From the NCBI GenBank assembly GCA_050014195.1, contig JBEKDT010000007.1, positions 1 to 64,000 on the forward strand: a stretch of 64,000 nt of DNA. The letters are read 5' to 3'. This DNA is from Desulfomonilia bacterium (GTDB lineage Bacteria > Desulfobacterota > Desulfomonilia > UBA1062). Position numbers and translations under genes: made by a program. Shown here in pieces: positions 24,432 to 49,075 of this stretch (its first letter is position 1; the number at the start of each line of letters is the position of its first letter). The notes below the pieces were generated by a model that was given only the letters and a program-made list of their open reading frames with translations, ran no database searches and was not told the DNA's origin.

Positions 24432-25514
24432 GTGCAATCATCTATCGAACGCATGTATGCAACACTACTCGACCAGGAGTATCAACGGGAGCTTTTCGGT
24501 GACCTCCAAGGTTTCCAAAGAAGAGGCCCCGGGTTCATAGCGTGCTGCCCATTCCACAAAGATCATATGCCCACATTACTGATCTACGGTGACAGGCCCG
24601 AATACTTTTGCTTTTCCTGCAGCGAACGCGGAGATTGGCTGAAGTTTATGATGCAAAGGTATAAAATACCATTTGAGGAGGCCTTATCGAGGATACCTCA
24701 TGCCTCTAAGATCCGACCTGCCGATTTACGTAAAGACCAATGGGAGAAAACGCTTTCTCGGATGATCTTTCTGGAAACGGCAACGTGCACGTTCATAACA
24801 CAGCTCTGGTCAAAACAAGGGGAAGATGTATTGCACTTCCTGTATAAACGCGGGTATTCAATGGGTGAAGTGGAGGGTATGTCGCTCGGATATTATCCGG
24901 GTTTCACGCAAACAAGGCGAAGCCTCCATTCTCAGGGAATAGACAAACATGATCTCGATAAGGTGTTTTCGCGGCTTTGGAAGAATCAATCCGATAATGC
25001 GGGCCTTGCCATCCCCTATCGGGACACATGCGGGAGACTCATGGGGATTATATTCCGTGATATAAGCAACACCGGCCATGGGGCATACAAGCCGTTGACC
25101 GACAATGAACCCCTTCAAGATGTGCCGTTTCTCATGTACCGGTCCAGGGGCCAGAGTGAGATTATTGTTGTTGAAGGTTTTTTTGATGCCCTGCTCATCG
25201 ACCAGGTGCGCCTAAAACCCGTAATCGGCATAGGCACGAATGGTCTTACCGGAGATCAGATAGATACTGCTGTTTTTTACGGAACAAGGCATTTTATACT
25301 CGCTCTGGGCAGCGGCAACCGGCAGAAAGACATCACCCGGGAAGCAATAAAAAAAATTCATGAACGCTCATTGACTGCATCAATATTGCCGATCCCTCCT
25401 GAATACAAAGATCTGGATGAATTCATCCGCATGACTTGCCTCGATCACTTCAAAGCCCTCCTAAAAAAGGTCATCAACGCTGATAAGTGGCTGGAAAGCG
25501 GCTTAAAAGGATAA
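24432..25514 (+). CDS. DnaG-like protein (CHC2 zinc finger + TOPRIM-like), short and probably catalytically degenerate
   Basis: CPFHKD...YFCFSC zinc finger, IPYRD..GRLMG, VVEGFFDA, KDLDEF. The DxD position reads ALGSG. Confidence 0.8.
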   Translation: MQSSIERMYATLLDQEYQRELFGDLQGFQRRGPGFIACCPFHKDHMPTLLIYGDRPEYFCFSCSERGDWLKFMMQRYKIPFEEALSRIPHASKIRPADLRKDQWEKTLSRMIFLETATCTFITQLWSKQGEDVLHFLYKRGYSMGEVEGMSLGYYPGFTQTRRSLHSQGIDKHDLDKVFSRLWKNQSDNAGLAIPYRDTCGRLMGIIFRDISNTGHGAYKPLTDNEPLQDVPFLMYRSRGQSEIIVVEGFFDALLIDQVRLKPVIGIGTNGLTGDQIDTAVFYGTRHFILALGSGNRQKDITREAIKKIHERSLTASILPIPPEYKDLDEFIRMTCLDHFKALLKKVINADKWLESGLKG

Positions 25515-25521
25515 TCCGTTC

Positions 25522-26646
25522 ATGCATTCTGCATCATACTCACAGGCAATTGTCATCGGAGCGGGCCCCGCGGGCCTCGGCGTATCGCTCGGTCTTGCCC
25601 GCAAGGGCATCTCAGTGATCATCATTGAGCTGCAGAAAAAATTAGGCTCGGTTCGCAGGGGGGAGACCATACGCTCTGATAAGCATATGGAAGAGATCCT
25701 TGGGCCCGGCTTTTTTGAGCGTATCACCATAAAAAAGGTGAACAAACGCCGCTACTTCTCGCATACCGGGGAATGCCATGTAGACCGTACCATCAAGAAC
25801 CCAAATATCATCTTTGCATGGCCGGATCTCATTCAAGAGATCGCGGCTCAGGCTGAGCGCAGTGGGGTGAGAGTCCTCACGGGAGTCGGCGTGAAGACAC
25901 TCTTAGGGGGTTCCGGCAGGGCACAAGGTGTTATAGCCGAGATGAACGGCGGCGAAAAAGAGTACCTTGCGCACACGATTATTTCCTGCGGGGGCTGTAA
26001 TGACCCGACTTCACTCTACATCAATCAGGACCGGACCGGTATCGACATGGCTGTGGCAAAACTCTTGGTGCGAGGATATACCGGACCGGAGGACCGGCTG
26101 GAATATCATCTCCATCTCGGACCTTCCGGACTTGTAGTCGGGACGATGTTCCCGCGCGGAGGAGGTGAGGCTGAATTCATACTGCTGGACACCTCCTCGG
26201 GAAAAGACATGCCGCCTTCATTCGATAAATTCTGCCATAGTCATCCTCAATTCAGCCGACTTTTAGAAGGCACGCAGACCTACTATGAACTTCAGACATG
26301 TATTCCTATGGGTGGAATACTCTATCCTTTCTCTCCTTGGCCAGGTCTTGTTATGGCTGGTGATGCCCTTGGCCATGTCCAGGCAAGGGGCGGCAGCGGG
26401 ATCAGAACTTCCTTTTTGATCGGCCATGCAGCAGGCACACTTGCAGCAGATGTTATACACTCAGGTGGGTGGTCCGAAGATAAAATGAAGAGATTCGAGC
26501 ACTTGATGAGAACCCATCCCTATGTTCGATCATTGAGACTTCATAATTTCCTCTACTCCAACCTCAGGTCACGTATTTTTGGTTTGGTCGACACGGCAGA
26601 AGAGATGGATAAAAAATGGAATATCCTTAAAGTCGCTTTGAGGTAG
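25522..26646 (+). CDS. FAD-dependent oxidoreductase (geranylgeranyl reductase/FixC-like)
   Basis: N-terminal VIGAGPAG Rossmann motif; AGDALG..GGSGI second FAD motif. Confidence 0.82.
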   Translation: MHSASYSQAIVIGAGPAGLGVSLGLARKGISVIIIELQKKLGSVRRGETIRSDKHMEEILGPGFFERITIKKVNKRRYFSHTGECHVDRTIKNPNIIFAWPDLIQEIAAQAERSGVRVLTGVGVKTLLGGSGRAQGVIAEMNGGEKEYLAHTIISCGGCNDPTSLYINQDRTGIDMAVAKLLVRGYTGPEDRLEYHLHLGPSGLVVGTMFPRGGGEAEFILLDTSSGKDMPPSFDKFCHSHPQFSRLLEGTQTYYELQTCIPMGGILYPFSPWPGLVMAGDALGHVQARGGSGIRTSFLIGHAAGTLAADVIHSGGWSEDKMKRFEHLMRTHPYVRSLRLHNFLYSNLRSRIFGLVDTAEEMDKKWNILKVALR

Positions 26647-26661
26647 AGAACCTATAAGTAG

Positions 26662-27825
26662 TCATGTCTGGGCCTTGTTCTTCGGCATAGTTTGGGACGG
26701 ATTTGGTACGAGTTGAACAACCCTTCTCTGCAATGCCCTTATCCTGTCCAGTTCATAATCCCCGTAGTGGTTCTCCATGACCGCCATAGATGACCAATGA
26801 CCGTAAGCCTGGGCATCTTCCTTGCTCCAACCGAGCTCATTGATTGCTGAGCTTGCCCCGCTTGTCCTGAACCCCCTATGCATATCAATGGTAACCCCTA
26901 TCTTCGCACAGGCTGCTTTCCATATGCTCATGAGGGTATCATGCGTGTACCTCATTCCGAATGAACGTGACGAGGCGTTGGTGAAGAAGTAAGGTGATAG
27001 GGCTTGGGGTTTGGGCATGTAGGGCTTAAACGCAGGGTGGCACGGCATTGTGACCGGAATACCGGTCTTGATGCTGTCTATCTCCTTGCCTCCGCTGATA
27101 GCTCGATGAATGATAAAAGAATCAAGCCTCTTGTCGTAATCGGACCGGTGCAGTGCGCATGCCTCTCCGACCCTGCGCCAGTGTAGTGCCATCCACCGGA
27201 ATATCGGCTGATGCTCTATAGGTATCTCGCTCAAAATAGCTTCCTGGGTTGCCTTATCAATCCAGTGTTTCGGTTGCTTTGGCACCTCGATGGTGGGGAA
27301 CCTTGGCACCTTGGAGATCCGGTCGGAATCACAGGCATCCCTGAGGATTTCTTTGAACACACCGAGGATGTTGCGTTTTGTCTTTGGTGCGGGTGGCAAT
27401 TCCATGGCCATGAGCTGCAAAGTGTCCTTCTGAACCACATGAAGATGCAGCGGATGACGTTCAAAGAATGCAATGATATGACGGACTGAACTACGATAGA
27501 AATGAATCGAGGATGGTTTTAATGATGGCTCTCTCAGGGTAAGCCAGGTTTCGCAATAGGGTATGGCATCGGTGAACTTGCCCCGGTACCTACTCAGATC
27601 AAAATTGCGCTCACCTCTCTGGTATGCCTCCCAATCATTACGCATGACGGTGAGGCATCTTTCGGCCATCTTGTAGCCGATGCACTTATCCTTATCCTGA
27701 TGACGCCTCCAGAACTTCTCACCTCCATGCAGGAAATCATCATAGAATTTCTCATGCTTCCCATCCTGATACCAATCTATAAACCAATACCGGCCCGATG
27801 AATGCGGTTGTATACTCCCCTTCAT
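26662..27825 (-). CDS. Tyrosine recombinase / phage-type integrase
   Basis: N-terminal arm-binding-like RYWFIDWYQDGK. Catalytic R (WRRVGE), K (IKT), H-x3-R (MHRGFR), GH, and Y (ENHY). Alternative start at 27894. Confidence 0.9.
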   Translation of the reverse strand: MKGSIQPHSSGRYWFIDWYQDGKHEKFYDDFLHGGEKFWRRHQDKDKCIGYKMAERCLTVMRNDWEAYQRGERNFDLSRYRGKFTDAIPYCETWLTLREPSLKPSSIHFYRSSVRHIIAFFERHPLHLHVVQKDTLQLMAMELPPAPKTKRNILGVFKEILRDACDSDRISKVPRFPTIEVPKQPKHWIDKATQEAILSEIPIEHQPIFRWMALHWRRVGEACALHRSDYDKRLDSFIIHRAISGGKEIDSIKTGIPVTMPCHPAFKPYMPKPQALSPYFFTNASSRSFGMRYTHDTLMSIWKAACAKIGVTIDMHRGFRTSGASSAINELGWSKEDAQAYGHWSSMAVMENHYGDYELDRIRALQRRVVQLVPNPSQTMPKNKAQT

Positions 27826-27900
27826 ACACACACCCCCCAACCCTGAAATAGTGGGGTGATTATACTGATGCATGTAAGGCCCGGTCAACTGCATGATTTT

Positions 27901-27999
27901 CTACCTAGGCATTACCTTGATTCCTGCAGGGCTGGAAGTCTCAGAATTTATTCCAGAACATATGTTTGTCCTAATCAAATTTTGTTTAACGAGTTTCAT
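27901..27999 (-). CDS. Small 32-aa ORF immediately upstream of the integrase
   Basis: AAGGAG RBS followed by MKLVKQNLIRTNICSGINSETSSPAGIKVMPR*. Confidence 0.35.
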   Translation of the reverse strand: MKLVKQNLIRTNICSGINSETSSPAGIKVMPR

Positions 28000-28240
28000 A
28001 TTATCTCCTTGGTAGGGGTTTAATGATTGTAATAGGGAAAGGCTAAAATATGATTTTTGGGTTCAAATATTTCTGGTTACGGACGACAGGAGAAAGCAAA
28101 AAGTGAGATGTTTTGAAAAACAGATTTCACGCTATAATTTGATTTAAGCATAGCCCTGCATTTCAGCAAAAGCCCAAATATTTGATGCTCTCCTTATAAC
28201 AAGAGTCAAACCAGCAACATACAGACATAAGGAGAATTTC

Positions 28241-29110
28241 ATGATCAATAACAGCTGTAATATCATAGCAATTGCAAATAGGAAGGGAGGGTGCGCCAAA
28301 ACTACCGCAGCAGTTAACCTGGCTGCAGCCCTAGCGGAGGAAGGAAAGAAAACACTCCTCATCGACATGGATTCACAGGCAAACGCAACGACCTGGCTCA
28401 GGAATGGGCTCAAAGACAACCAGTATTCAGTCTTTGAATTCCTGGCTGGGAGGGTAGGAGGTAAAAAAATCTGGTACCAGGACACCGTCATTGAACTAGG
28501 TAAAAACCTCAAACTCATCCCGGGAAGTAATAAGCTTAACGAAATTGAACCCATGATGGCAGTAGCGGAGAAAATGAAAAACACAGAGGTAAGATACTAC
28601 CTCCAACAAAGGATAAGAGAAATCGATGAAGATTTCGACTATATCCTCATCGATTGTCCCCCAGGCCTGGGCTATATAATGCTTAACGTCCTAACTGCCA
28701 CAGATTACGCTATTATCCCCGGTTTTGATGCATTCGCCGTTAAGGGTGCCATAGAAGTGATAGATCTTATCGATACTCAGATAAGAAAAAGAAACCCGGG
28801 ACTACATGTGCTCGGCTTCCTCATAACCAGGTATGGGAACCGTTTCCTGGGCAATGGCTTGCCTGCTTTTTTCCGGTATCGTAACCTTTCAATCGCCCTG
28901 AAAAGATACTTCAATGGAAATGTCCTGAAGACGTTCATCCGAGAAGACAATAAGCTCGAAGAGGCATGCTGCAATGGTCAAACAATCTTCGAGTACAAAA
29001 GATATTCAAATGCCGGACAGGACTACGAGGCTCTGGCAAAAGAGATTATTTCCATCATCGATGCCTTAAAACAGGAGGATATTCATGAAACCGAAAGAAA
29101 AAGTATCTGA
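28241..29110 (+). CDS. parA: ParA/Soj-family ATPase
   Basis: IANRKGGCAKTT deviant Walker A, LIDMDSQANAT, YILIDCPPGLG, DYEALAKEI. AAGGAG RBS. Confidence 0.93.
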   Translation: MINNSCNIIAIANRKGGCAKTTAAVNLAAALAEEGKKTLLIDMDSQANATTWLRNGLKDNQYSVFEFLAGRVGGKKIWYQDTVIELGKNLKLIPGSNKLNEIEPMMAVAEKMKNTEVRYYLQQRIREIDEDFDYILIDCPPGLGYIMLNVLTATDYAIIPGFDAFAVKGAIEVIDLIDTQIRKRNPGLHVLGFLITRYGNRFLGNGLPAFFRYRNLSIALKRYFNGNVLKTFIREDNKLEEACCNGQTIFEYKRYSNAGQDYEALAKEIISIIDALKQEDIHETERKSI

Positions 29111-30005
29111 AAATAACTTTGCCAGAATGTTTCAGAAAAAATCTGGCTTACAAAACACGTTAGAAGATTTCGATCTATCGCGCCCGGAAGCTGATGATCA
29201 AATAAATGTAAGATTTGGGCAGTTGATCAAACTGGATATTATCCACCCCGACCCCAAACAGCCACGGAAAACCTTCAATGAGGAGAGCATCCAGAGTCTG
29301 GCCGAATCCATCAAGACCAATGGTCTGATTACTCCGATTCTCGTCAGGCCAAACGGGGAAGGTTACATGATCGTGGCAGGTGAAAGACGTCACAGAGCAT
29401 GCGTCATTGCAGGGCTCGATGCTGTCCCCTGCATCATCAAAGATGTCACAGGGTTTGAGGCCTTCAAGCTCTCGCTTATCGAAAACCTCCAAAAGGAGGA
29501 TCTGGATCCATTTGAAGAAGCTGCTGCATACCAGAGTCTTATTGATGATTATGGAATGACCCAGGAGGAAATCGGAAAGATAGTAGGAAAAAAACAATCG
29601 ACAATTTCACATATTATGTCTGTAAATAAGCTCCCTGAGAGTGTTTGCAAGAAATATGCGACGTCGCATATTCCAAAAAGTCAGCTTGTTGAGATCGCCA
29701 AGGCCCCTACAGAGGAAGTAATGGAAAACCTAGCCGAAAAGACCGTGCAAGAAAGTCTCACTGTGAAGGATATCAGGGAAGCAACCAAAGCTGCCAAGAC
29801 GAAGGAAGCAATCCCCAGCCGGGCCAAGAATTCCGATGTGTTCAAAACCCTCATGAATATGGCCATATCTTATACCAAAGTATTGAACAAGCTTGCCGAG
29901 AACGACATAAGCACCCTGTCTGAGAACGAACGTAATGCATTGCGAGACAAGATCATAGAAAACCGGAAGATCGAGGACGCCTGGCTTGATAGATTGCCGA
30001 TTTGA
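29085..30005 (+). CDS. parB: ParB/Spo0J-family partition protein
   Basis: QPRKTF, VAGERRHRAC (CTP box), LIENLQKEDL, HTH TQEEIGKIVGKKQSTISHIM. Overlaps parA. Confidence 0.93.
   Translation: MKPKEKVSENNFARMFQKKSGLQNTLEDFDLSRPEADDQINVRFGQLIKLDIIHPDPKQPRKTFNEESIQSLAESIKTNGLITPILVRPNGEGYMIVAGERRHRACVIAGLDAVPCIIKDVTGFEAFKLSLIENLQKEDLDPFEEAAAYQSLIDDYGMTQEEIGKIVGKKQSTISHIMSVNKLPESVCKKYATSHIPKSQLVEIAKAPTEEVMENLAEKTVQESLTVKDIREATKAAKTKEAIPSRAKNSDVFKTLMNMAISYTKVLNKLAENDISTLSENERNALRDKIIENRKIEDAWLDRLPI
29653..29672. promoter_or_regulatory. Perfect 20-bp palindrome inside parB, candidate parS
   Basis: AATATGCGAC|GTCGCATATT. Confidence 0.55.
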
Positions 30006-39210: not shown

Positions 39211-40146
39211 CTATACTGCGGGAGCAAGCTTGCTCTTTCCAACTTTCTTGTACGAAGGAAGATTTGTATAGATCTCTTCTTTGAGCGGGTTGCGTTTGTA
39301 CTTAAGAACTGTATACACCTGGTAAACAAATACTGCGGCGTTGGAAGCCAGAGCGAGGCTGCTGACAACCCACAGAGCAGTTGCATTGTGTGATGACTTA
39401 ACAGCAAACATTGATGTATCGATGAAATTCGGAAAGGTCATGGCGAACATGCACCAGATGGCAAGGGTCTGGGCACGGTGCTGCAGCCAGGCACCAGTCC
39501 TGATGACGAAAGCGGGAATGGTACAAGAGATCAGAAGAGCTGCTCCGGCATAAAATGCGTGATCGGAAAGACAGTTGTACACATATGCGAAGTTCCAGAG
39601 ATCATATGCAATGATCCAGAACCAGAGCATATCAGGCCATAGCATATCTTTCTTCTTGTCGTTACTTATGAAAATTCCCTGCCAGCCGCAAATAGTGATG
39701 ATATTCAGAAGTCCGGCAATGCCGTTCATGACATTCCATGGACCGCTGAACATAAATACGCCGTCAACCATTCCTCGAGCATGCATGCCGAACACCTGGA
39801 AATCACGAGTACAGGCTTCCAGTATGTTGAGCGCGAGAATAAACGGAGGGAACATCAGGAGATATTTGTTTTTTGCCGCACCCTTGATATGACGAATGAC
39901 AAGGAAGCCAAGGCATCCGGCCAACGCCGAATACACCTTTGCCCAATGAAACCAATCGTTCATGCTGGTGCCTTCTCCGGCAGTGGTCGGCCATAAAGCA
40001 AATGTTAGAATAAGAGGCAGTACAAGAAAAATCAAAAGGGAACACCATTTGTTTAAACGGGCCAGTTCATTGACAAGCATCAAACCGCCAAGAACGGCGA
40101 ACCACATTAGGGCGGAGTACCATGGGATCGGTTGAAATAAAAACAT
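39211..40146 (-). CDS. Integral membrane protein, DUF5692-like
   Basis: WFHWAKVYS, NILEA, WNVMNGIAG, AYDLWNFAYVYNC, WLQHRAQTL. Start at MFLFQ; family assignment from memory. Confidence 0.75.
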   Translation of the reverse strand: MFLFQPIPWYSALMWFAVLGGLMLVNELARLNKWCSLLIFLVLPLILTFALWPTTAGEGTSMNDWFHWAKVYSALAGCLGFLVIRHIKGAAKNKYLLMFPPFILALNILEACTRDFQVFGMHARGMVDGVFMFSGPWNVMNGIAGLLNIITICGWQGIFISNDKKKDMLWPDMLWFWIIAYDLWNFAYVYNCLSDHAFYAGAALLISCTIPAFVIRTGAWLQHRAQTLAIWCMFAMTFPNFIDTSMFAVKSSHNATALWVVSSLALASNAAVFVYQVYTVLKYKRNPLKEEIYTNLPSYKKVGKSKLAPAV

Positions 40147-40198
40147 CGTAATAGCCTTCCTTTCAGAGGAAAATCTGCTGCCAAGATCGATCCTTCGA

Positions 40199-40588
40199 TC
40201 AGACGATGACCACCGGACAATGGGCATTGATGATCACGTGCTGGGCCACAGAGCCCAACAGGAACTTCTCAACCCTGGATTTCTTCTCGGTCCCGATAAC
40301 GATCTCGTCCACATGGTGCTCCTTGGCAAAGCGTATCACGTCATCGCCAGCATCGTTTCCTTTGATCAGTAGGTGCGTCTCGGCAACAATCTTCTCCTTT
40401 TCCAGGACGCCCTTGAGATATGCAAGATCGGTTTCCATTTTATCAATCTCATCAAGCTGCGGCTCTCCACCCTTGTGAAGGGAGCACACAATATCTACTG
40501 CGGCCTGAAAGGCCTTTGCATGCATTTTCACCAAAGGCAGGGCATCCTTGGCATACTCTGTCCCATCATAGTACATCAGTATTCTCAT
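40199..40588 (-). CDS. Universal stress protein
   Basis: ILMYYDG N-terminus; IVIG...LLGSVAQHVI...CPVVIV. Confidence 0.92.
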   Translation of the reverse strand: MRILMYYDGTEYAKDALPLVKMHAKAFQAAVDIVCSLHKGGEPQLDEIDKMETDLAYLKGVLEKEKIVAETHLLIKGNDAGDDVIRFAKEHHVDEIVIGTEKKSRVEKFLLGSVAQHVIINAHCPVVIV

Positions 40589-40679
40589 AGTCTGTTACTT
40601 CCTTTCTCCTGGCTGATCCGCAGTACATCATGCATCATGCGTCTCCCATGCCTCTCATAAGATCTGGCTCAGTATCCTT

Positions 40680-41180
40680 CTATTTCTTGAAGATCTTTTT
40701 CAGGAGCTGCTTTTCTTTTCCAGCATTCTCCACGGTCTTGCCCAATTCCTCCTGGTACCCGGTAACAAGGGCATGGATGATCCGGTCAAAGAACAGGTTC
40801 CCGTAGTAGTTAATCTCCAAGAGCTGGTTCAGGGTAAAACCGCTGTCTACCGCGATTTGGTCCCTGAGCTCATGCCAGATAGCCCTCTTGATGAGAAGAA
40901 AGACCATGACTACCTCGTCCAGCGGGATGCCTTCCATGCACCGGTGCGCACCCAAATCGGAATAGTAGGCGAACAAGGTGTTTTTGGGCTTGTTCTTGTT
41001 CAGCCAGTTTCCGAGCCTCACGTGCACATTGCGGATCACTTGGGCGATGCGCTCTTCAGTGACATCCTCTGAGAGCTCACGGTAATGCCTTGTCTCTTCC
41101 CTCTTCTGGATCTCCTGCTCAACGTTCTTCGTTATCTTCTCCGCATGGTTTTCAATGAGGGCCATGAATCGTTCGTACAT
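40680..41180 (-). CDS. Helical sensor-like protein (RsbRD N-terminal/globin-like), paralogue A
   Basis: YSDLGAHRCMEGIPLDEVV, FFDRIIHALVTGY; AGGAGG RBS. Confidence 0.75.
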   Translation of the reverse strand: MYERFMALIENHAEKITKNVEQEIQKREETRHYRELSEDVTEERIAQVIRNVHVRLGNWLNKNKPKNTLFAYYSDLGAHRCMEGIPLDEVVMVFLLIKRAIWHELRDQIAVDSGFTLNQLLEINYYGNLFFDRIIHALVTGYQEELGKTVENAGKEKQLLKKIFKK

Positions 41181-41207
41181 CGTTGATTCCTCCTTTCTCA
41201 GGTTTAA

Positions 41208-41693
41208 CTAATGATTGTATATGCTACCTGTCTTTTCGTTAGTCCTTCCTTGTTCGTCCTGATAGCCAATGACCGTAGAATGGATGATCTGATCAAAGAA
41301 CAGATTTACATAGAAATTGATCTCCAAGAGCTGATTGAGCGTTAAGCCAATGAACACCTCAGGCTCATTTTTAATTGCATCCAATATCTGTCTTTTGATC
41401 AGCATGATCAGCATGATAACCTCTTCAAGGGGTATGCCTTCCCTGCATCTCTGTGCACCTAGATCCGAATAATAGGCAAACATAGTATCCGAAGAATTCA
41501 TTTCCCATGTAATTCGCAATGTGTATGAAATACTAGGAAACTGGGTCAATAAGAACAAACCGAAAGACACCTCTTTCGAGATATCACGATCACGATAATG
41601 CCTGACTTCCTCTCTCTCTTGGATCTCCCGCATGAGATTTTTTGTTATCTTCTCAGAACCGTTTTCGATGAGCTTCATGAATCTTTCGTACAT
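41208..41693 (-). CDS. Paralogue B of 40680-41180, carrying an in-frame internal inversion (41485-41570)
   Basis: Aligns with paralogue A except for ~28 central residues, whose homologous sequence lies on the opposite strand. Confidence 0.8.
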   Translation of the reverse strand: MYERFMKLIENGSEKITKNLMREIQEREEVRHYRDRDISKEVSFGLFLLTQFPSISYTLRITWEMNSSDTMFAYYSDLGAQRCREGIPLEEVIMLIMLIKRQILDAIKNEPEVFIGLTLNQLLEINFYVNLFFDQIIHSTVIGYQDEQGRTNEKTGSIYNH

Positions 41694-41730
41694 GACCTTT
41701 CCCCCCTTCATCTGTATGAGTTAGTTAAAA

Positions 41731-41746
41731 GGCATTATTTATGCCA
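41731..41746 (-). promoter_or_regulatory. sigma54 promoter of the leftward operon (paralogues B and A, USP, membrane protein)
   Basis: Minus strand TGGCAT-AAATA-ATGCC (GG-N10-GC). Confidence 0.7.
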
Positions 41747-41828
41747 AGACATAAACGATTTATAACTTATTAAAATGACGATTATATTTATCTTTCCTAT
41801 ATATCTACCAACCCTGAATGACCGGGCA

Positions 41829-41870
41829 ATATTTGAATTTTTACAAGGTTTCTTTGCAATTTTTTAAAAG
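41829..41870. promoter_or_regulatory. Putative enhancer (tandem sites) related to 44627-44669
   Basis: Reverse complement aligns with 44627-44669 at ~31/43 positions by hand; both end 81-82 bp upstream of a sigma54 box. Confidence 0.6.
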
Positions 41871-42042
41871 ATCAAACCATCAAGGGATTTTCTCATGATC
41901 TCATGATAATGTCAGGTCACCTTTTCCTCTACAAGGATGATAAGGCATCCTATTGGCAATTCTCAATAGCTTCCCTGCCAGGGTCGTATTATAATTATAA
42001 AAGATTATTAAGATGACTTCAGACTGTAAGGAGACAATAAGG

Positions 42043-43221
42043 ATGCCGCGAAAACCGTCATATGCCGAGCTGCTGCAGAGGATAAGGGATCTTGAGGCCC
42101 GGCAGGACGCTCTTATAGAGAATAACCCTTCGGAGTATGGCATCGATGATCCCTTCAGGAAGAATGAGGAACATTTCAGAGACCTGGTGGAGAATTCGCC
42201 TACCGGCATTTCCATTGTCGTGGACGAGAAGGTCGTGTACAGAAACCTGGAACAGCAGAGGATCTTCGGGCCGCTGACCGGCGGTCTGCCGTCCATATAC
42301 GAGCGGGTCCACCCTGATGACCGACAAAAGCTTAAGGAACATTATCAATCGACCCTTGAAGGTCATACCGCAGGCATTGACCTCAGATTCATCGGCATAC
42401 GCAGTGAAGCAGCGGGTGACCACGCAACAATATGGATCCACGGCCGTTCAAGCCTTATAAGATATCAGGGCAGAAGGGCGATACTGTTCAACATGATGGA
42501 TGTCACTGCTGCCAGGGAGATGGAGCGCCTCCTGAACATCCAGGACCGGATGGCGTCCCTGGGCCATGTAGCAGCGGGCATTGCCCATGAGATCCGCAAT
42601 CCCCTTTCAGGGATCAACATTTATCTTGATAACGCTGAACAGATTCTGGAAAAAGGTGGGGACATAGAGAAGCTTAAGGAGGTTCTTAAAAAAATACAGT
42701 CCGCTTCATCCAAGATCGAATCCATAATCAAGCGTGTCATGGATTTCTCCAAGCCCTCCGAGCCGAAGCTCATGCACATCGATATCAACAGGCCTATTGA
42801 GGATGCTTTGGGGCTCTCCTCTGTCATGCTCAGAAAGACAGGTATTGAGATAATAACGGATCTTGCAAAAGGCCTTTCACCATGCATCGCAGATTCCCAG
42901 CTTATCGAGCAGGTGATCCTCAACCTTATAACGAATGCTGCAGAGGCTATGAAAGACATGGAACAGGGAAAGAAGATCAAAGTCAGCTCATCTTGTAAAG
43001 GGAACCATATCATTGTTTCTGTGGCGGATTCCGGACCAGGTGTACCGGCGGATCTGGCTCAAAAGATTTTCGACCCGTTCTTTACGACCAAGGGTAGCTC
43101 AACCGGCATCGGGCTGAGCCTCTGCCAGCGGATAATCCATGATCATAAAGGGACATTGAATATATCCTCCGGCACACTTGCCGGGGTTGAATTTACATTC
43201 ACCATACCTTTGGATATATGA
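42043..43221 (+). CDS. Cytoplasmic PAS histidine kinase (NtrB-like)
   Basis: PAS (VHPDD), H-box AHEIRNPL, N-box NLITNA, DSGPG, FDPFFTTK, GIGL. Confidence 0.93.
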   Translation: MPRKPSYAELLQRIRDLEARQDALIENNPSEYGIDDPFRKNEEHFRDLVENSPTGISIVVDEKVVYRNLEQQRIFGPLTGGLPSIYERVHPDDRQKLKEHYQSTLEGHTAGIDLRFIGIRSEAAGDHATIWIHGRSSLIRYQGRRAILFNMMDVTAAREMERLLNIQDRMASLGHVAAGIAHEIRNPLSGINIYLDNAEQILEKGGDIEKLKEVLKKIQSASSKIESIIKRVMDFSKPSEPKLMHIDINRPIEDALGLSSVMLRKTGIEIITDLAKGLSPCIADSQLIEQVILNLITNAAEAMKDMEQGKKIKVSSSCKGNHIIVSVADSGPGVPADLAQKIFDPFFTTKGSSTGIGLSLCQRIIHDHKGTLNISSGTLAGVEFTFTIPLDI

Positions 43222-43232
43222 TGGGAGGAAGC

Positions 43233-44624
43233 ATGATCAGGTTCTCTCTCGTTCTCATTGATGATGAGAAGACGATCAGGGATGGAATCAGCATGGCCCT
43301 TGATTCTGAATATGATGTCAGGACCTTTGCTACTGCGGAAGAAGCCCTTGACGCTATCAGAACCGCCCCTCCCGACCTCATCCTTCTTGATATCGGGCTC
43401 CCGAGCATGAACGGCATCGATGCCCTGGACAAGATTAAGGAAATGTACCCTGATATGCTGGTCATCATGATAACGGCATACGAAGACATCAAAACCGTCA
43501 TATCGGCCATGAAGCTCGGAGCCTATGACTATGTGGTAAAACCCATCGTCATGGGTGGACTGAGGGTTACTATACAAAACGCCCTGGAGTCTATCCGCCT
43601 CAGAAAGGAAGTGAGGCTCCTCCAGGAACACTACCTGAAAGACAACCTGCCTTTTTTCATTGCACAGAGCAATGAGATCCAGGAGGTCATGGACTTCATC
43701 ACAAGGGCTGCCAAGAGCCCTGACACGCCCATACTCATCCTGGGGGAGACCGGTACGGGCAAGGAGCTCATTGCGAGCGCCATCCACTACCACAGCCCGA
43801 ATTTCAAGGGTCCTTTTCTGACACTCAATTGCGCAGCCATCCCTAAGGAACTCATTGAAAGCGAGCTTTTCGGATATGAAAAAGGCGCTTTCAGCGGCGC
43901 AGGCCCTTCGGGGAAACGTGGCCTTATTGAGGAGGCAGCGGATGGAACCCTGTTTCTCGATGAAGTGGGTGATTTGAGCCTTCAGGCCCAGGCAAAACTC
44001 CTGCGCTTTCTGGAAGACGGGGAATTCTACCGTGTTGGTTCAACCCAGAAACACCATATCCGAACACGGATCGTGTCCGCAACAAACAAGGACCTGAGCG
44101 ACATGATGGAGCAGAGTTTATTCAGGAATGACCTATACTTCAGGCTGGGTGTGATCACAGTCCATGTTCCCTCCCTGAACGAGCGCAAGGAAGACATCAT
44201 GGCCCTGGCGAACCATTTTCTCGTTACGTTCAGCGCCAAGTTTCACAAAAAATATAAAGGCATATCAAAGGAGGCCAAGCAGGCCCTTCAAGAGCATCAC
44301 TGGGTGGGTAATGTACGCGAGTTGAAAAATCTCATTGAGCGGGGCGTACTTATCGGGAAAGGTCCTGAGCTGAAACTTGAGGATATGGGTATGAACATGT
44401 CAGGACGGGGAGGAGGTAAGCGCGCTGCAGAAAAGGTGTACTTTCCGGATGAAGATCCGGCCATTCCTCCTGAAGGCATCGATCTCATACAGGCAGTCAC
44501 TGAATATGAAAGACGTTATATAAAAGCCGCACTCAAGTATGCAGAGGGCAATGAGAGCAAGGCTGCAAGGCTTCTCCACATGAACCACTACACATTCCGC
44601 TACCAGAAAAAAAAGATCCTGTAG
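43233..44624 (+). CDS. NtrC-family sigma54-dependent response regulator
   Basis: Receiver (IDDE, LLDIGLP, VKP), [35 protein letters not shown]. Confidence 0.94.
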   Translation: MIRFSLVLIDDEKTIRDGISMALDSEYDVRTFATAEEALDAIRTAPPDLILLDIGLPSMNGIDALDKIKEMYPDMLVIMITAYEDIKTVISAMKLGAYDYVVKPIVMGGLRVTIQNALESIRLRKEVRLLQEHYLKDNLPFFIAQSNEIQEVMDFITRAAKSPDTPILILGETGTGKELIASAIHYHSPNFKGPFLTLNCAAIPKELIESELFGYEKGAFSGAGPSGKRGLIEEAADGTLFLDEVGDLSLQAQAKLLRFLEDGEFYRVGSTQKHHIRTRIVSATNKDLSDMMEQSLFRNDLYFRLGVITVHVPSLNERKEDIMALANHFLVTFSAKFHKKYKGISKEAKQALQEHHWVGNVRELKNLIERGVLIGKGPELKLEDMGMNMSGRGGGKRAAEKVYFPDEDPAIPPEGIDLIQAVTEYERRYIKAALKYAEGNESKAARLLHMNHYTFRYQKKKIL

Positions 44625-44750
44625 ACATTTTGAAAAATTATCAAGGATCTTTGTGAATTTTGCAAATATCTGAGTAACCGAATTCTATCCAGTTTCTTAA
44701 TAGAGCAGCTAACAGATTGAATGGACATATGATCTCGTAATACGCTTATC

Positions 44751-44766
44751 TGGCATGCCCTATGCT
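44751..44766 (+). promoter_or_regulatory. sigma54 promoter
   Basis: TGGCAT-GCCCT-ATGCT, ~30 bp upstream of ATG 44796. Confidence 0.75.
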
Positions 44767-44795
44767 CTATACACAGTTCAGAGGCAAGAAAATTT

Positions 44796-45185
44796 ATGAA
44801 CCTGTTTGAAGAGATCAGAGATAAGAAAATTTTACTCATTGATGATGATGAGAGTATCAGGGACTCCATGAGCATGTTTTTTCTCGGTGAAGGCATTTCG
44901 ATCGATACTCTGGAGACAGCGGAAGAAGGAGTCAATGCCATAAAAAAACAGCACTACGACATCATAATCACCGACTACAAACTGCCCAGCATGGACGGAC
45001 TGAGTTTTCTCAAGCACATTCATGTGCTATGCCCTGATTCCTTTAAGATTTTCCTAACTACATATGGGAACAAAGAAGAGTTCTCAGAGGCAACCCGGCT
45101 AGGAGCAGACGAATACATAGTAAAGCCCTTTACCACCAAGCTCATCAAGGATGTCCTGACACGATTTATGGAAAGAAGGAGATAA
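44796..45185 (+). CDS. Single-domain response regulator
   Basis: LIDDD, ITDYKLPSMDG, YIVKPF. Confidence 0.92.
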   Translation: MNLFEEIRDKKILLIDDDESIRDSMSMFFLGEGISIDTLETAEEGVNAIKKQHYDIIITDYKLPSMDGLSFLKHIHVLCPDSFKIFLTTYGNKEEFSEATRLGADEYIVKPFTTKLIKDVLTRFMERRR

Positions 45186-45208
45186 AGAGTCGTATATAGG
45201 AGGACTGT

Positions 45209-45643
45209 ATGTTTGATAAAATCTTGTATCCAACTGACTTTTCAGAAATAGCACATAAAGCATTACCCTATATTGAGGCATTAAAGAGTGCTGGGGCGAA
45301 TGAGGTGATCATTTTGCATGTAAACGATGAGACATGCGTAAATACTCTTCGCATATTTACGGCACAAGATGTTCTTGCTTTAGAAAAACGCTTGAAGGAT
45401 TCAGCACTCAACCAGATTGCCCCCCTTGAAGATGAGTTGAGGAGTAAAGGATTTCGAGTCAAATCCCACATCGATAATGGTATCCCTTTCAGAGAGATTC
45501 TGAAGGTGGCAGAGGAAGAGAATGTTTCTATTATCATTATGGGCTCTCATGGAAAGAACAGCATCATCGAGATTATGCTGGGCTCTGTTGCTGAAAAAGT
45601 GGCCAGTAGAGCCCATAAGCCTGTACTCATAGTAAGGAGATGA
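45209..45643 (+). CDS. Universal stress protein
   Basis: KILYPTDFS, MGSHG, LGSVAEKV, PVLIV. Confidence 0.94.
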   Translation: MFDKILYPTDFSEIAHKALPYIEALKSAGANEVIILHVNDETCVNTLRIFTAQDVLALEKRLKDSALNQIAPLEDELRSKGFRVKSHIDNGIPFREILKVAEEENVSIIIMGSHGKNSIIEIMLGSVAEKVASRAHKPVLIVRR

Positions 45644-45703
45644 GAAGTTTTCCAAATAACAGGACCAGCGAGAGCGGGCCTACTGCTGAACCGTATAAAT
45701 CAG

Positions 45704-48700
45704 ATGATAAAAACATGGATAAATAAATATCTGAAAAAGGAAGGGACAGAGGCATTCAATGACATCGAAGGTTGGAGAACATATTACTTTGACCTGATAT
45801 TGTTCCTTGCCTGTATCCTTTTGCCCATAGCTCTTGCTGTTAATCTTTCGACTTACATCGAGGAAAACAGATGGGGAACCCTTATATTTCAGGTAGGGAT
45901 ATTCTTTTTCCTGGCGATCTTGTTTTTCATACGGAATCCCCTTGTCCGCTGGGGTATGTTCTTTTTCTTTCTTTATGCAACTGTCATCACATTCTTCATT
46001 TCTCTTGGACCCTTCTATGCCCGTCCCGGATGGCTTGTTCTCTGTACTGTCACTGCCGCCCTTCTCTTCGGAGTGCCTGCTGCAGTGGCATCCGTTGGAC
46101 TTAATGCCATACTACTTCTTGTCCTCTATTACTTTATTGGGCCGCATCTGCAATCATGGGCGACAGCCTATACAGAGCCTGATCTGAAATGGATCATATT
46201 CACCGTGAATATCTCTTTTGTCTCCCTTGTGGCAAGTGTGCCTGTCAGCCTGCTCTTGAGAAGGCTGAATACTTCCTTTCAACATGAACAGGATATGCAC
46301 CAGCAGCTTTTAAATGAAAGTGAATCGCAGAGAGAAACAAACGCCATTCTCTCCAATGAGATCGCTGAACGTAAGCGTATAGAAGGAGAATTGAAAGAGA
46401 GTCAAAAAAGCTACCGGCTTCTTGCAGAGAATGTTCGTGACGTTATGTGGATCTTTGACCTGAATCTTGACTACGCCTTCGTGACACCGTCTGTACAGAG
46501 GTTGAGAGGTTACACCGTCGAAGAGGCATTGAAACAGACCATTGATCAGATCCTGACGCCGGAATCCTATCAAAAGGCCAAGGCGATTCTGGATAGAGAA
46601 ATTGCGCTGGAATTCAGTGGAAAACGCCATGGGCCTGAATGGTCATTAACCACTGAACTCGAGATGGTCCGTAAAGATGGCTCTACCGTCTGGACAGAGG
46701 CTACCATGAACATGGTCTACCATGAGGATGGCGAGCCTACAGGAATCATAGGGGTAACCCGTGACATCACCGAACGCAAGCGGACGGAGAAGGCGCTTAC
46801 GGAATCAAAAAACTATCTGGACAGGATCATCAATTCTGTTGCCGATCCCATTTTTGTTAAAGACAGACAACACCGCTGGGTATTACTGAACGACGCTATG
46901 TGCAATTTTATGGGGCACAACCGAGAGGAATTGATAGTGAAATCTGACTATGATTTCTTCCCGAAAAGTGAAGCCGATACCTTCTGGGAAAAAGATGAGG
47001 CCGTCTTTAATTCGGGTAAAGAAAACATCAATGAGGAAAAATTCACTGATGTAAAAGGAGTTGTTCATACTATCGTTACAAAAAAAACATTGTACACGGA
47101 CGATAAGGGAGAGAAGTTCATAGTTGGTATCATCAGGGATATTACAGGGAGAAAGCAGGTCGAGGGAATAATCCGAAAGAGCGAAGAGCGATATCGGACG
47201 ATCTTTGAGAGCACGGCGACAGCCAACATCATTGTGGCTGAGGATACGACAATCCTTCTAGCAAACTCGAACTTCGAGAGAATGACGGGGTATTCGAGGA
47301 GTGAATTGGAAGGGAAAATGAGCTGGACGAGTCTTGTGGTGGACGAGGACCTTGAGAGGGCAAAAATGAATCACAGGATGCGTCGAGAAAAGCCGGGATC
47401 AGCAGCTAACTCCTATGAATTGCGGTGTGTCAATCGGCAGGGCCAAATAAGGGATCTCTATATGAGTGTTGCCGTCATCCCTGATACACAAGAGAGTGTT
47501 ACCTCCTTAATAGACATATCTGAACGAAAGCAGGCTGAAGAAGATCTCCGAAGGAGTGAAGAGCGATATCGTACCATGTTTGAGCACACAGGCAATGCAT
47601 CGGTACTCTTTGGTGAGGACACAACTCTCCTGCTGGTAAATTCAAATTTCGAGAAGCTCTCCGGGTACTCAAAAAAGGAACTTGAAGGCAAGATGAGCTG
47701 GACCGCTTTCGTTGATAAGGAAGATCTGGAGAGGATGCGGCAATATCATGAGATGCGCAGGAATGAACAGGGGTCTGTCCCTGATTCCTATGAATTCGGC
47801 TTCATTAATCGCTGTGGGGAGAAGAAAGACATATTCCTGAACATAGCCCTCATCCCTGGAACCAAAGTAAGTGTCTGCTCCCTGATAGATATCACCGAGC
47901 GCAAGAAGGCAGCTGAAGAGAAGAAGCGGCTTGAGGATCAACTCACCCAAGCCCAGAAAATGGAGTCCATAGGGACATTAGCTGGCGGGATCGCACATGA
48001 CTTCAATAATATCCTTACAGCAATAATCGGATATTCAGAACTCGCCCTCGACGATGTCTCAGATCCAGAAAAGGCGAAGACAGAAATCAGAGAGGTGATC
48101 AAGGCGGGTGATCGTGCCAAAAACCTCGTGAGTCAAATCCTTACATTCAGTCGCAAGACTGAGACCACATATTCTCCATTGGAACTCCCAACTCTTATCA
48201 AGGAATCGCTCAAGATGCTTCGATCAGTTATCCCAGCGACCATTGAGATTCGCCGGGGTATCATCAAGTCGGGTCTGGTCATGGTAGATCCTACCCAGAT
48301 TCATCAATTGATGATGAACCTGTGCACCAATGCGGCTCATGCAATGGATGAGACTGGGGGTGTGCTTTCCGTAAGCTTGCATAAAGACAATATAGATGCA
48401 GAGATAGCTAGTGATCTTGAAGTATCTCCCGGACCTTATTTAAGGCTCACCGTCAGTGACACCGGTCATGGCATGACCCCTGAGGTCATGGAAAGGATCT
48501 TCGAGCCTTATTTTACTACCAAGGAACTTGGGCGTGGAACAGGCCTTGGACTGTCGGTTGTTCATGGGATTGTAAAAAGTCATGGTGGCGCTATCATTTG
48601 TAAGAGTGCATCTGGAGAAGGGACAACCTTTGATATTTATCTACCTGAACTTGTATTGGAGACAAAAGCTCCAGAATCTACCAAGGAAGAATCTCTTCCG

Positions 48701-49075
48701 AGGGGAACCGAGCGTATACTTTACATTGATGATGAACCAGCTCTGGCTAACTTAGCAGAAAAGATGCTGAGTAAACTGGGATACGATGTAACCACTTTGA
48801 CAAGCAGCCTTGAGGCATTGAATATCTTTAAATCAAGGGCAGATAAGTTCGACCTGGTCATCACTGACATGACCATGCCAGGCATGACAGGAGATACCCT
48901 GGCCCAGAAGCTTATGGAAATTCGACCTGATATTCCTGTGATTCTGTGTACCGGATATAGCGAGCACGTCTCGGGTGAGGGAGCAAAAAAGATCGGTATT
49001 CGGAAATTTGTCATGAAGCCCTTAGAAATGAAAGTGTTGGCGAAGGCCATCCGTAAGGTGCTCGATGACAAATAA
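45704..49075 (+). CDS. Membrane hybrid histidine kinase (TM region, 4 PAS, HisKA/HATPase, receiver)
   Basis: N-terminal TMs, four PAS/PAC ending DITERK-like, AHDFNNIL, GTGLGL, ITDMTMP. Confidence 0.93.
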   Translation: MIKTWINKYLKKEGTEAFNDIEGWRTYYFDLILFLACILLPIALAVNLSTYIEENRWGTLIFQVGIFFFLAILFFIRNPLVRWGMFFFFLYATVITFFISLGPFYARPGWLVLCTVTAALLFGVPAAVASVGLNAILLLVLYYFIGPHLQSWATAYTEPDLKWIIFTVNISFVSLVASVPVSLLLRRLNTSFQHEQDMHQQLLNESESQRETNAILSNEIAERKRIEGELKESQKSYRLLAENVRDVMWIFDLNLDYAFVTPSVQRLRGYTVEEALKQTIDQILTPESYQKAKAILDREIALEFSGKRHGPEWSLTTELEMVRKDGSTVWTEATMNMVYHEDGEPTGIIGVTRDITERKRTEKALTESKNYLDRIINSVADPIFVKDRQHRWVLLNDAMCNFMGHNREELIVKSDYDFFPKSEADTFWEKDEAVFNSGKENINEEKFTDVKGVVHTIVTKKTLYTDDKGEKFIVGIIRDITGRKQVEGIIRKSEERYRTIFESTATANIIVAEDTTILLANSNFERMTGYSRSELEGKMSWTSLVVDEDLERAKMNHRMRREKPGSAANSYELRCVNRQGQIRDLYMSVAVIPDTQESVTSLIDISERKQAEEDLRRSEERYRTMFEHTGNASVLFGEDTTLLLVNSNFEKLSGYSKKELEGKMSWTAFVDKEDLERMRQYHEMRRNEQGSVPDSYEFGFINRCGEKKDIFLNIALIPGTKVSVCSLIDITERKKAAEEKKRLEDQLTQAQKMESIGTLAGGIAHDFNNILTAIIGYSELALDDVSDPEKAKTEIREVIKAGDRAKNLVSQILTFSRKTETTYSPLELPTLIKESLKMLRSVIPATIEIRRGIIKSGLVMVDPTQIHQLMMNLCTNAAHAMDETGGVLSVSLHKDNIDAEIASDLEVSPGPYLRLTVSDTGHGMTPEVMERIFEPYFTTKELGRGTGLGLSVVHGIVKSHGGAIICKSASGEGTTFDIYLPELVLETKAPESTKEESLPRGTERILYIDDEPALANLAEKMLSKLGYDVTTLTSSLEALNIFKSRADKFDLVITDMTMPGMTGDTLAQKLMEIRPDIPVILCTGYSEHVSGEGAKKIGIRKFVMKPLEMKVLAKAIRKVLDDK

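Follow-up and report, generated by a model that had tools for sequence, protein, structure and literature searches.

A probable ancient micro-inversion in a presumably still-selected sensor-globin-like paralogue of a Desulfomonilia peat bacterium

The window, i.e. the whole stretch of 64,000 nt that was analysed (contig JBEKDT010000007.1), belongs to the 4.2-Mb genome of a peat bacterium. It contains the tandem genes A and B, which are listed together with the other features in Table 1. Gene A is preceded by the motif AAGGAGG and served as the reference for the uninverted state. The reading frame of B is open up to an ATG at position 41711 (41208-41711, 167 aa); the true start is probably the ATG at position 41693, just ahead of which the Shine-Dalgarno-like sequence GAAGGGGGGAAAGG is located. 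A protein identical to B is present in the database (P0001). The C-terminus of B (41208-41240) reads ...NEKTGSIYNH and is without the LLxKIFKK-type tail of A and of most relatives.

Both genes are located upstream of a Usp gene and of the gene for a DUF5692 membrane protein, and they lie opposite a pair consisting of a PAS histidine kinase and a sigma-54 activator. This signalling neighbourhood spans positions 39211-49075. The prediction of sigma-70-like promoters between positions 40500 and 42050 was uninformative (3 found vs 3.3±1.6 expected), and 0.04 of the sampled words of the stretch were present in one RNA run. At some distance, the block from 24432 to 30005 resembles part of a mobile or partition module. 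In total, the genome (G000) possesses five copies of the family, A and B included. The three further paralogues were observed at C1:46810-47307, C2:75929-76396 and C2:76507-76983; the copy on contig 1 shares 73% identity with A, and contig 2 holds a second tandem pair. Similar pairs of adjacent matches occur in several genomes of the same genus.

Table 1. Features of the window at and around the genes A and B.
Feature	Position	Strand	Length	Remarks
CHC2 zinc-finger (DnaG-like, primase-like) ORF	24432-25514
ORF with weak integrase match	26662-27894	minus	410 aa
ParA-like	28241-29110
ParB-like	29085-30005
DUF5692 membrane protein	39211-40227
Usp	40199-40588
Gene A	40680-41180	minus	166 aa	Canonical tandem paralogue, 27 nt downstream of B
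Gene B	41208-41693	minus	161 aa	From ATG 41693; RsbRD_N-like, sensor-globin-like; carries the inverted segment
Inverted segment	41485-41570		86 nt	As first given; B residues 42-70 (161-aa numbering)
Left end GTATC	41485-41489			Partner GACAC
Right end GACAC	41566-41570			Partner GTATC
PAS histidine kinase	42013-43221
Sigma-54 activator	43218-44624
Response regulator	44796-45185
Second Usp	45209-45643
MASE11-PAS hybrid kinase	45704-49075

In the first-pass annotation, which was made from the sequence of the window, B was described as matching A except for one stretch. This agrees with our alignment, in which the proteins share 62% identity outside the segment (80/130) and 29 codons differ. The minus-strand ORF of B reads ...ISKEVSFGLFLLTQFPSISYTLRITWEMNSSDTMFAYY... 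in this region, and the present reading of the segment itself is VSFGLFLLTQFPSISYTLRITWEMNSSDT. In this orientation, 21 of the 29 positions can be aligned with A (MAFFT), and 4 of those are identical. The plus strand of the segment still reads the family motif. Frame 0 of positions 41485-41570 gives VSEEFISHVIRNVYEILGNWVNKNKPKD(T), and positions 41485-41571 give VSEEFISHVIRNVYEILGNWVNKNKPKDT. A recount yielded the same 20 identical residues of 29, without gaps, that had been reported for the comparison of this opposite-strand reading with VTEERIAQVIRNVHVRLGNWLNKNKPKNT of A. Translation of both strands also upheld the earlier statement that the segment is free of stop codons in either orientation.

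A six-frame search of the whole genome with A detected positions 41482-41580 on the plus strand (E=5e-7; 64% identity; A residues 39-71). Conversely, residues 40-77 of B matched the opposite strand of homologues in G013, G000:C1, G007 and G011 (E-values from 2.6e-10 to 2.9e-7). Because of the low E-values in both types of search, the match exceeds what is expected by chance. In comparison to its homologues, the segment is a reverse complement in place, and its flanks are collinear with theirs. Judged by this comparison of sequences, the inversion in B is real.

A flip that keeps the reading frame must be symmetric about position 41527.5. The best-scoring flips in comparison to A extend from 41483/84 to 41571/72, and those from 41485-41570 to 41487-41568 fall short of the best by no more than one match. 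According to a breakpoint scan, the true ends lie within 41477-41491 and 41564-41578; they cannot be placed more finely because the reference paralogue A is only 56% identical. The two pentamers at the ends of the segment as first given, GTATC and GACAC, are complementary at 4/5 positions, which corresponds to a perfect match of 2 nt (GT/AC) or to 5 nt with one mismatch. None of the 20 pairs listed in an inverted-repeat scan of positions 41350-41720 (6-nt exact seeds) brackets the segment. The previous description of the ends as a short and imperfect inverted repeat is thus confirmed, as the scan revealed none that is longer.

Two further observations were made close to the right end. At positions 41583-41596, 12-15 nt from the right breakpoint, there is a tandem duplication of a hexamer (ATCACG x2 on the plus strand, CGTGAT x2 on the coding strand), which encodes R-D-R-D. 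At this site, B and P0002, a relative described below, are two residues longer than all canonical relatives (HYRDRDISKE vs HYRE--ISEE). This duplication may be a separate slippage event or may belong to the same mutational episode. In addition, the flip put two copies of CGAAAGA in inverted orientation, resulting in a 7-8-bp hairpin inside B (41560-41585). A T-rich run comes after it on the sense strand, and a simple scan flags the hairpin as terminator-like. It was rejected as a feature, as 24/200 shuffled sequences fold equally well (-13.2 kcal/mol; z=-1.35), and the number of terminator-like sites in the scan was 3 vs 1.5±1.3 in shuffles. It was likewise rejected as the footprint of a template switch in which copying went past the replaced stretch, since the sequence to the right of the segment contains no reverse complement of its loop and left arm.

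Each codon of the present frame pairs with positions 2 and 1 of an old codon and with position 3 of the one before it, and from the coordinates the third codon positions coincide in both frames. As these positions are shared, conservation at the protein level alone cannot tell which of the two frames is constrained. When the segment was flipped virtually in other members of the family, no stop codon occurred in any of the 6 close homologues (A, the contig-1 copy and four copies from the same genus), and 1-3 stop codons occurred in each of the 5 more distant homologues. The virtually flipped peptides of the close homologues resemble the peptide of B, e.g. VFFGLFLLSQFPSLSYTLRITWEMRSEAT. Since the antisense frame is free of stop codons in close homologues, it is unremarkable that the frame remained open after the flip. 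It was also observed that in the close homologues L002 and L008-L011 the antisense frame would give nearly the hydrophobic peptide of B over 29 codons.

The product of A matches the Pfam family RsbRD_N below the cutoff (E=0.0016; 19.6 bits; cutoff 24.3), and our own scan detected no Pfam family at E<=0.1 for B. Precomputed matches to PF14361 exist for P0001 and, in all, for 31/32 of the database relatives. The AlphaFold model of A, based on a 28-row alignment, is all-helical (pLDDT 85.4) and is predicted to possess a globin-like fold. A Foldseek search with this model retrieved the sensor globins BpeGReg (6m9a_C; TM 0.68/0.71), pXO1-118 (3pmd; 0.66/0.71), the N-terminal domain of RsbR (2bnl_A; 0.57/0.70) and DosC, with a probability of 1.00 but weak E-values of about 0.2-0.3. 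This placement is in line with the RsbRD_N (PF14361) matches, which are weak or precomputed. The family appears to share the all-helical fold of the RsbR N-terminal and sensor-globin domains (PF14361; 2bnl, 3pmd, 6m9a). Unlike these domains, its members are stand-alone proteins of ~165 aa without an output domain, and no histidine is found among the conserved columns of the family.

In A, the segment comprises most of a helix (residues 38-60) and a lysine-rich loop (residues 61-68, NKNKPKNT), which were modelled with confidence, and 6 of the 24 columns that are invariant in the family are located inside it. Compared with the sensor-globin fold, the third helix and its loop are replaced in B. 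The model of B (29-row alignment; pLDDT 73.5) keeps the remaining fold. Residues 47-68 show pLDDT values <50, and the other 10-residue blocks average 64-94, except for the last seven residues; the low values say little about the real structure, because the rows of the alignment carry the canonical segment at these positions. The recoded version had been called more hydrophobic, and the mean Kyte-Doolittle values bear this out (0.32 for the present peptide vs -0.59 for the canonical reading). The present peptide contains 1 basic and 2 acidic residues vs 4 and 4 in the canonical reading, and FGLFLL has taken the place of the lysine-rich loop.

With B as the query, 32 relatives were retrieved from 5.8 billion protein clusters. 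When the search was restricted to residues 38-84, the flipped peptide was detected in P0001 and P0002 only, and a search among shorter proteins gave no match. P0002 is a protein of 183 aa that is encoded on a single contig of 1,865 nt. It carries the flipped peptide VSFGLFLLTQFPSISSALRITWEMNSSDT (...SISSALRITW...), which is identical to that of B at 27/29 positions; outside the segment, 105/132 residues (80%) are identical. P0002 also retains a related C-terminal tail (...VVKNFKIKK). Flanks like those of B that are joined to a canonical segment were found neither among the 5.8 billion protein clusters nor in the examined contigs, and among 40 related genomes, of which 14 belong to the same genus, the flipped residues of B were not matched in sense orientation by any further copy.

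A maximum-likelihood tree was calculated from 36 rows after removal of the segment and its flanks (alignment columns 120-163); P0023 and P0029, which are fused or fragmentary, and P0001, which is identical to B, were left out. Over the columns compared, P0010, which one source assigns to a Desulfomonilia bacterium, does not differ from a copy of the same genus. In this segment-masked tree, B and P0002 form a clade (support 100/98), which groups with the canonical proteins P0003 and P0012 (support 97/92). The distance from B to P0002 amounts to 0.11+0.26 changes per column (about 0.37 per site). P0003, P0012 and all other relatives examined possess the canonical segment. P0003 is the closest canonical relative and shares 24/29 residues with the old frame of the B segment and 70% identity with B outside it. 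An import of the segment from another paralogue was rejected, as the old frame is closest to P0003, and so are the flanks.

By parsimony, these sequences place the inversion as a single event on the stem of B and P0002, after the split from P0003 and P0012. It is not recent, because it is shared with P0002, whose sequence outside the segment is 80% identical; this age rests on one diverged protein, P0002, at the protein level. A comparison of orthologues had been proposed previously, and it yielded this shared flip in P0002 and canonical sister lineages in P0003 and P0012. Of the suggestion of a recent one-off microhomology inversion, the one-off origin remains, and the recent date has to be given up, since the flip predates the split of B and P0002.

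For an analysis of selection, conserved columns were defined as those occupied by one residue in at least 90% of 28 canonical relatives, which applied to 40 columns outside and 12 inside the segment. B and P0002 both have full-length frames without stop codon or frameshift. Outside the segment, they differ at 3/40 conserved columns vs 24/88 variable columns (Fisher p=0.010), and each of them retains the family residue at 36/40 conserved columns. These observations suggest that the protein with the replaced helix is still under selection.

Inside the segment, 2/29 positions differ between both proteins. This is fewer than in the variable columns (Fisher p=0.022; binomial 0.007), indistinguishable from the conserved columns (p=1.0) and not significantly different from the whole remainder of the protein (27/128; p=0.11); if the lineages of B and P0002 had recently exchanged this central part of the gene, such a conservation would be mimicked. 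The old frame of B has lost 4/12 conserved residues (R44F, Q47H, R55I and L60V) vs 4/40 outside the segment, a marginal difference (p=0.07). Two base changes behind these losses are silent in the present frame. The exchanges Y->S and T->A in P0002, if they are due to single base changes, would by parsimony translate into V->A and Y->D when read in the old frame, both at further conserved positions. The combined sequence data favour selection on the present form and argue against a continued use of the canonical reading.

The occurrence of both orientations was examined in other sequence data. In 23 DNA runs from 22 peat or wetland samples (2017-2025), the share of recovered 31-mers, as sampled from positions 41150-41800, is 0.97-1.00; all of these runs are flagged as possible sources of the DNA of the window, but no more than a few of them can have provided it. 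In the per-run (Logan) assemblies of the runs X16, X13, X6 and X20 (80% likeness), one contig of 12,655 nt each covers positions 41000-42000 with 0 differences. No strand-change joint was found over this range in the contigs of the 4/4 runs; such contigs drop rare variants, so that a minority orientation could escape. A second contig of 2,978 nt (<90% alike) corresponds to positions 41002-41118 and 41259-41339 only and is located off the segment.

The lengths of the contigs (12,655 and 2,978 nt) are equal in all four runs despite different sizes and years. This suggests that the samples, from related sites, share one clonal strain, for which the graph breaks at the same points, and because of the equal lengths the four runs do not represent fully independent populations. 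Two JGI contigs also cover the locus; one is identical to the window over 5,501 nt (L037) and the other differs at 2 positions (L038). The present orientation is thus the only one seen in the contigs of 4/4 runs, in 2/2 JGI contigs and in P0002. With regard to DNA of the P0002 lineage, a scan of the JGI metagenomes gave just 2 loci, both 100% identical to B, a scan of species genomes gave no loci, and no P0002-like contig was found in the 4 runs at 80% likeness.

It is probable that B is a still-selected paralogue of a sensor-globin-like (RsbRD_N-type) gene in which an ancient micro-inversion became fixed. A single flip in place of about 76-90 bp would have occurred inside one paralogue. It was presumably caused by an illegitimate event, e.g. 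a replication template switch or break-and-rejoin, and not by a site-specific recombinase; such an event is most likely because there is hardly any homology between the ends (2 nt perfect, 5 nt imperfect). The flip would have been symmetric to the codon phase, which kept the frame, and the antisense frame, which is free of stop codons upon virtual inversion of close relatives, would have left the gene open. The residues equivalent to residues 40-68 of A, most of the helix and the loop, would thereby have been exchanged for an unrelated, more hydrophobic peptide of 29 residues. The inverted allele would then have been fixed and passed on to at least two lineages, those of B and P0002, as is seen at the protein level. 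Afterwards, the rest of the protein would have been subject to family-like purifying selection, and the new segment would have changed little. B most likely still works, as an altered member of the family, and is probably co-transcribed with its canonical neighbour A. Whether the 29-residue peptide itself is under purifying selection, B being a working and functionally shifted paralogue beside its canonical twin, is a point on which our assessment is evenly balanced.

It is unlikely that B is a dead or dying paralogue that lost its function through the inversion and whose open frame survives only by chance or owing to the short time elapsed. A conserved helix has been replaced by a peptide that AlphaFold cannot place (residues 47-68, pLDDT <50), the C-terminal tail is absent, no Pfam family was detected in our own scan, and canonical copies are redundant, with A alongside and a third copy on contig 1; in addition, a random frame of 29 codons is open in about 25% of cases. 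However, the frames of B and P0002 are still full-length after about 20% amino-acid divergence, their differences avoid the conserved columns, the segment has changed less than the variable columns, and B is preceded by a good ribosome-binding site. Even less is to be said for an artefact of assembly or amplification, an alternative which had been considered before and whose probability is practically negligible. Chimeric or foldback artefacts can yield short inversions, and each of the 23 runs is marked as a possible source of the DNA; yet the DNA can stem from no more than a few of the 22 samples, separate Logan assemblies agree in 4/4 runs, the two JGI contigs agree as well, and the flip is shared by the diverged protein P0002.

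The reversible switch proposed in the first-pass annotation, an intragenic inverton by which one gene gives rise to a canonical and a recoded isoform, was not borne out and is very improbable. Recoding intragenic invertons exist in Bacteroides, as far as the available text of the respective report shows (bioRxiv 10.1101/2023.03.11.532203), and both orientations of the segment are free of stop codons. Due to the shared wobble positions, both frames could in principle be maintained, and contigs could miss a minority orientation. A tyrosine recombinase had also been noted ~14 kb away. An ORF is indeed present at 13.6 kb (26662-27894, minus strand), but its match to Phage_integrase is weak and remains below the threshold (E=5e-5; 23.6 bits; cutoff 27.1). 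This ORF adjoins the ParA/ParB and primase-like ORFs, and no link between it and the inversion site was found. Against a switch stand the ends, where nothing longer than the imperfect 5-mer serves as an inverted repeat, and the single orientation in 4/4 runs, 2/2 JGI contigs and the 80%-identical P0002. Moreover, the peptide occurs in just two protein clusters, no cluster combines B-like flanks with a canonical segment, and the canonical reading has lost 4/12 residues that are conserved in the family.

Short inversions are a recognised, little-studied class of mutations. In the accessible part of the work on recoding intragenic invertons, these elements are described as bounded by inverted repeats, acted on by site-specific recombinases and present in mixed orientations in one culture (bioRxiv 10.1101/2023.03.11.532203); the inverted repeats of the thiC inverton comprise 11 positions (Chanin et al., bioRxiv 10.1101/2023.03.11.532203). 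Like in these invertons, the inversion in B is located wholly within a gene, and the enclosed residues are recoded without a stop codon. Unlike the invertons described there, B has imperfect 5-mer ends, was seen in one orientation and has inherited the inversion across about 20% protein divergence.

A template-switch inversion is the better analogy. Template-switch mutations are known at quasipalindromes of E. coli (PMC7202029, as far as its available text goes). For coding genes of yeast (Saccharomyces), the accessible part of a further study describes spacers of 2-5 bp, arms >9 bp and changes of <=2 residues by inversion of the spacer, and its authors expect long inversions to be non-neutral (PMC8604942). 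B resembles these events, as far as they are described there, in the one-step replacement by the reverse complement in frame, by which several residues are changed and which can become fixed. It differs from the yeast events in its length of about 86 bp and 29 residues, in the near absence of arms and in its persistence. Micro-inversions <100 bp have been treated as rare genomic changes in human and bird genomes, according to the available parts of three reports (PMC4895285, PMC7658078, PMC3123225). The inversion in B belongs to the same size class and may likewise be regarded as a rare shared derived character, which unites B and P0002; in contrast to those cases, it is located in a bacterial coding sequence and kept the frame. 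Our searches of open-access literature revealed no fixed in-frame inversion of such a length in a bacterial gene.

The inversion in B is a rare and moderately interesting case of protein innovation. The fixed coding examples found change one or two residues (PMC8604942, accessible part), and here 29 codons are concerned. The flip hit the best-conserved part of the family and survived about 20% divergence of the other residues, and the remainder of the protein is still constrained. With regard to methods, the case implies that phase variation should not be assumed for every intragenic inversion with both strands open in an assembly. A and B, or B with and without the flip, provide a pair for testing the tolerance of the globin-like fold to the replacement of a helix. 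If the peptide is indeed selected, B would be a natural one-step protein innovation that is roughly ten times longer than the described coding template-switch inversions. If this explanation is true, a gene duplicate can absorb a large jump in sequence space in one step.
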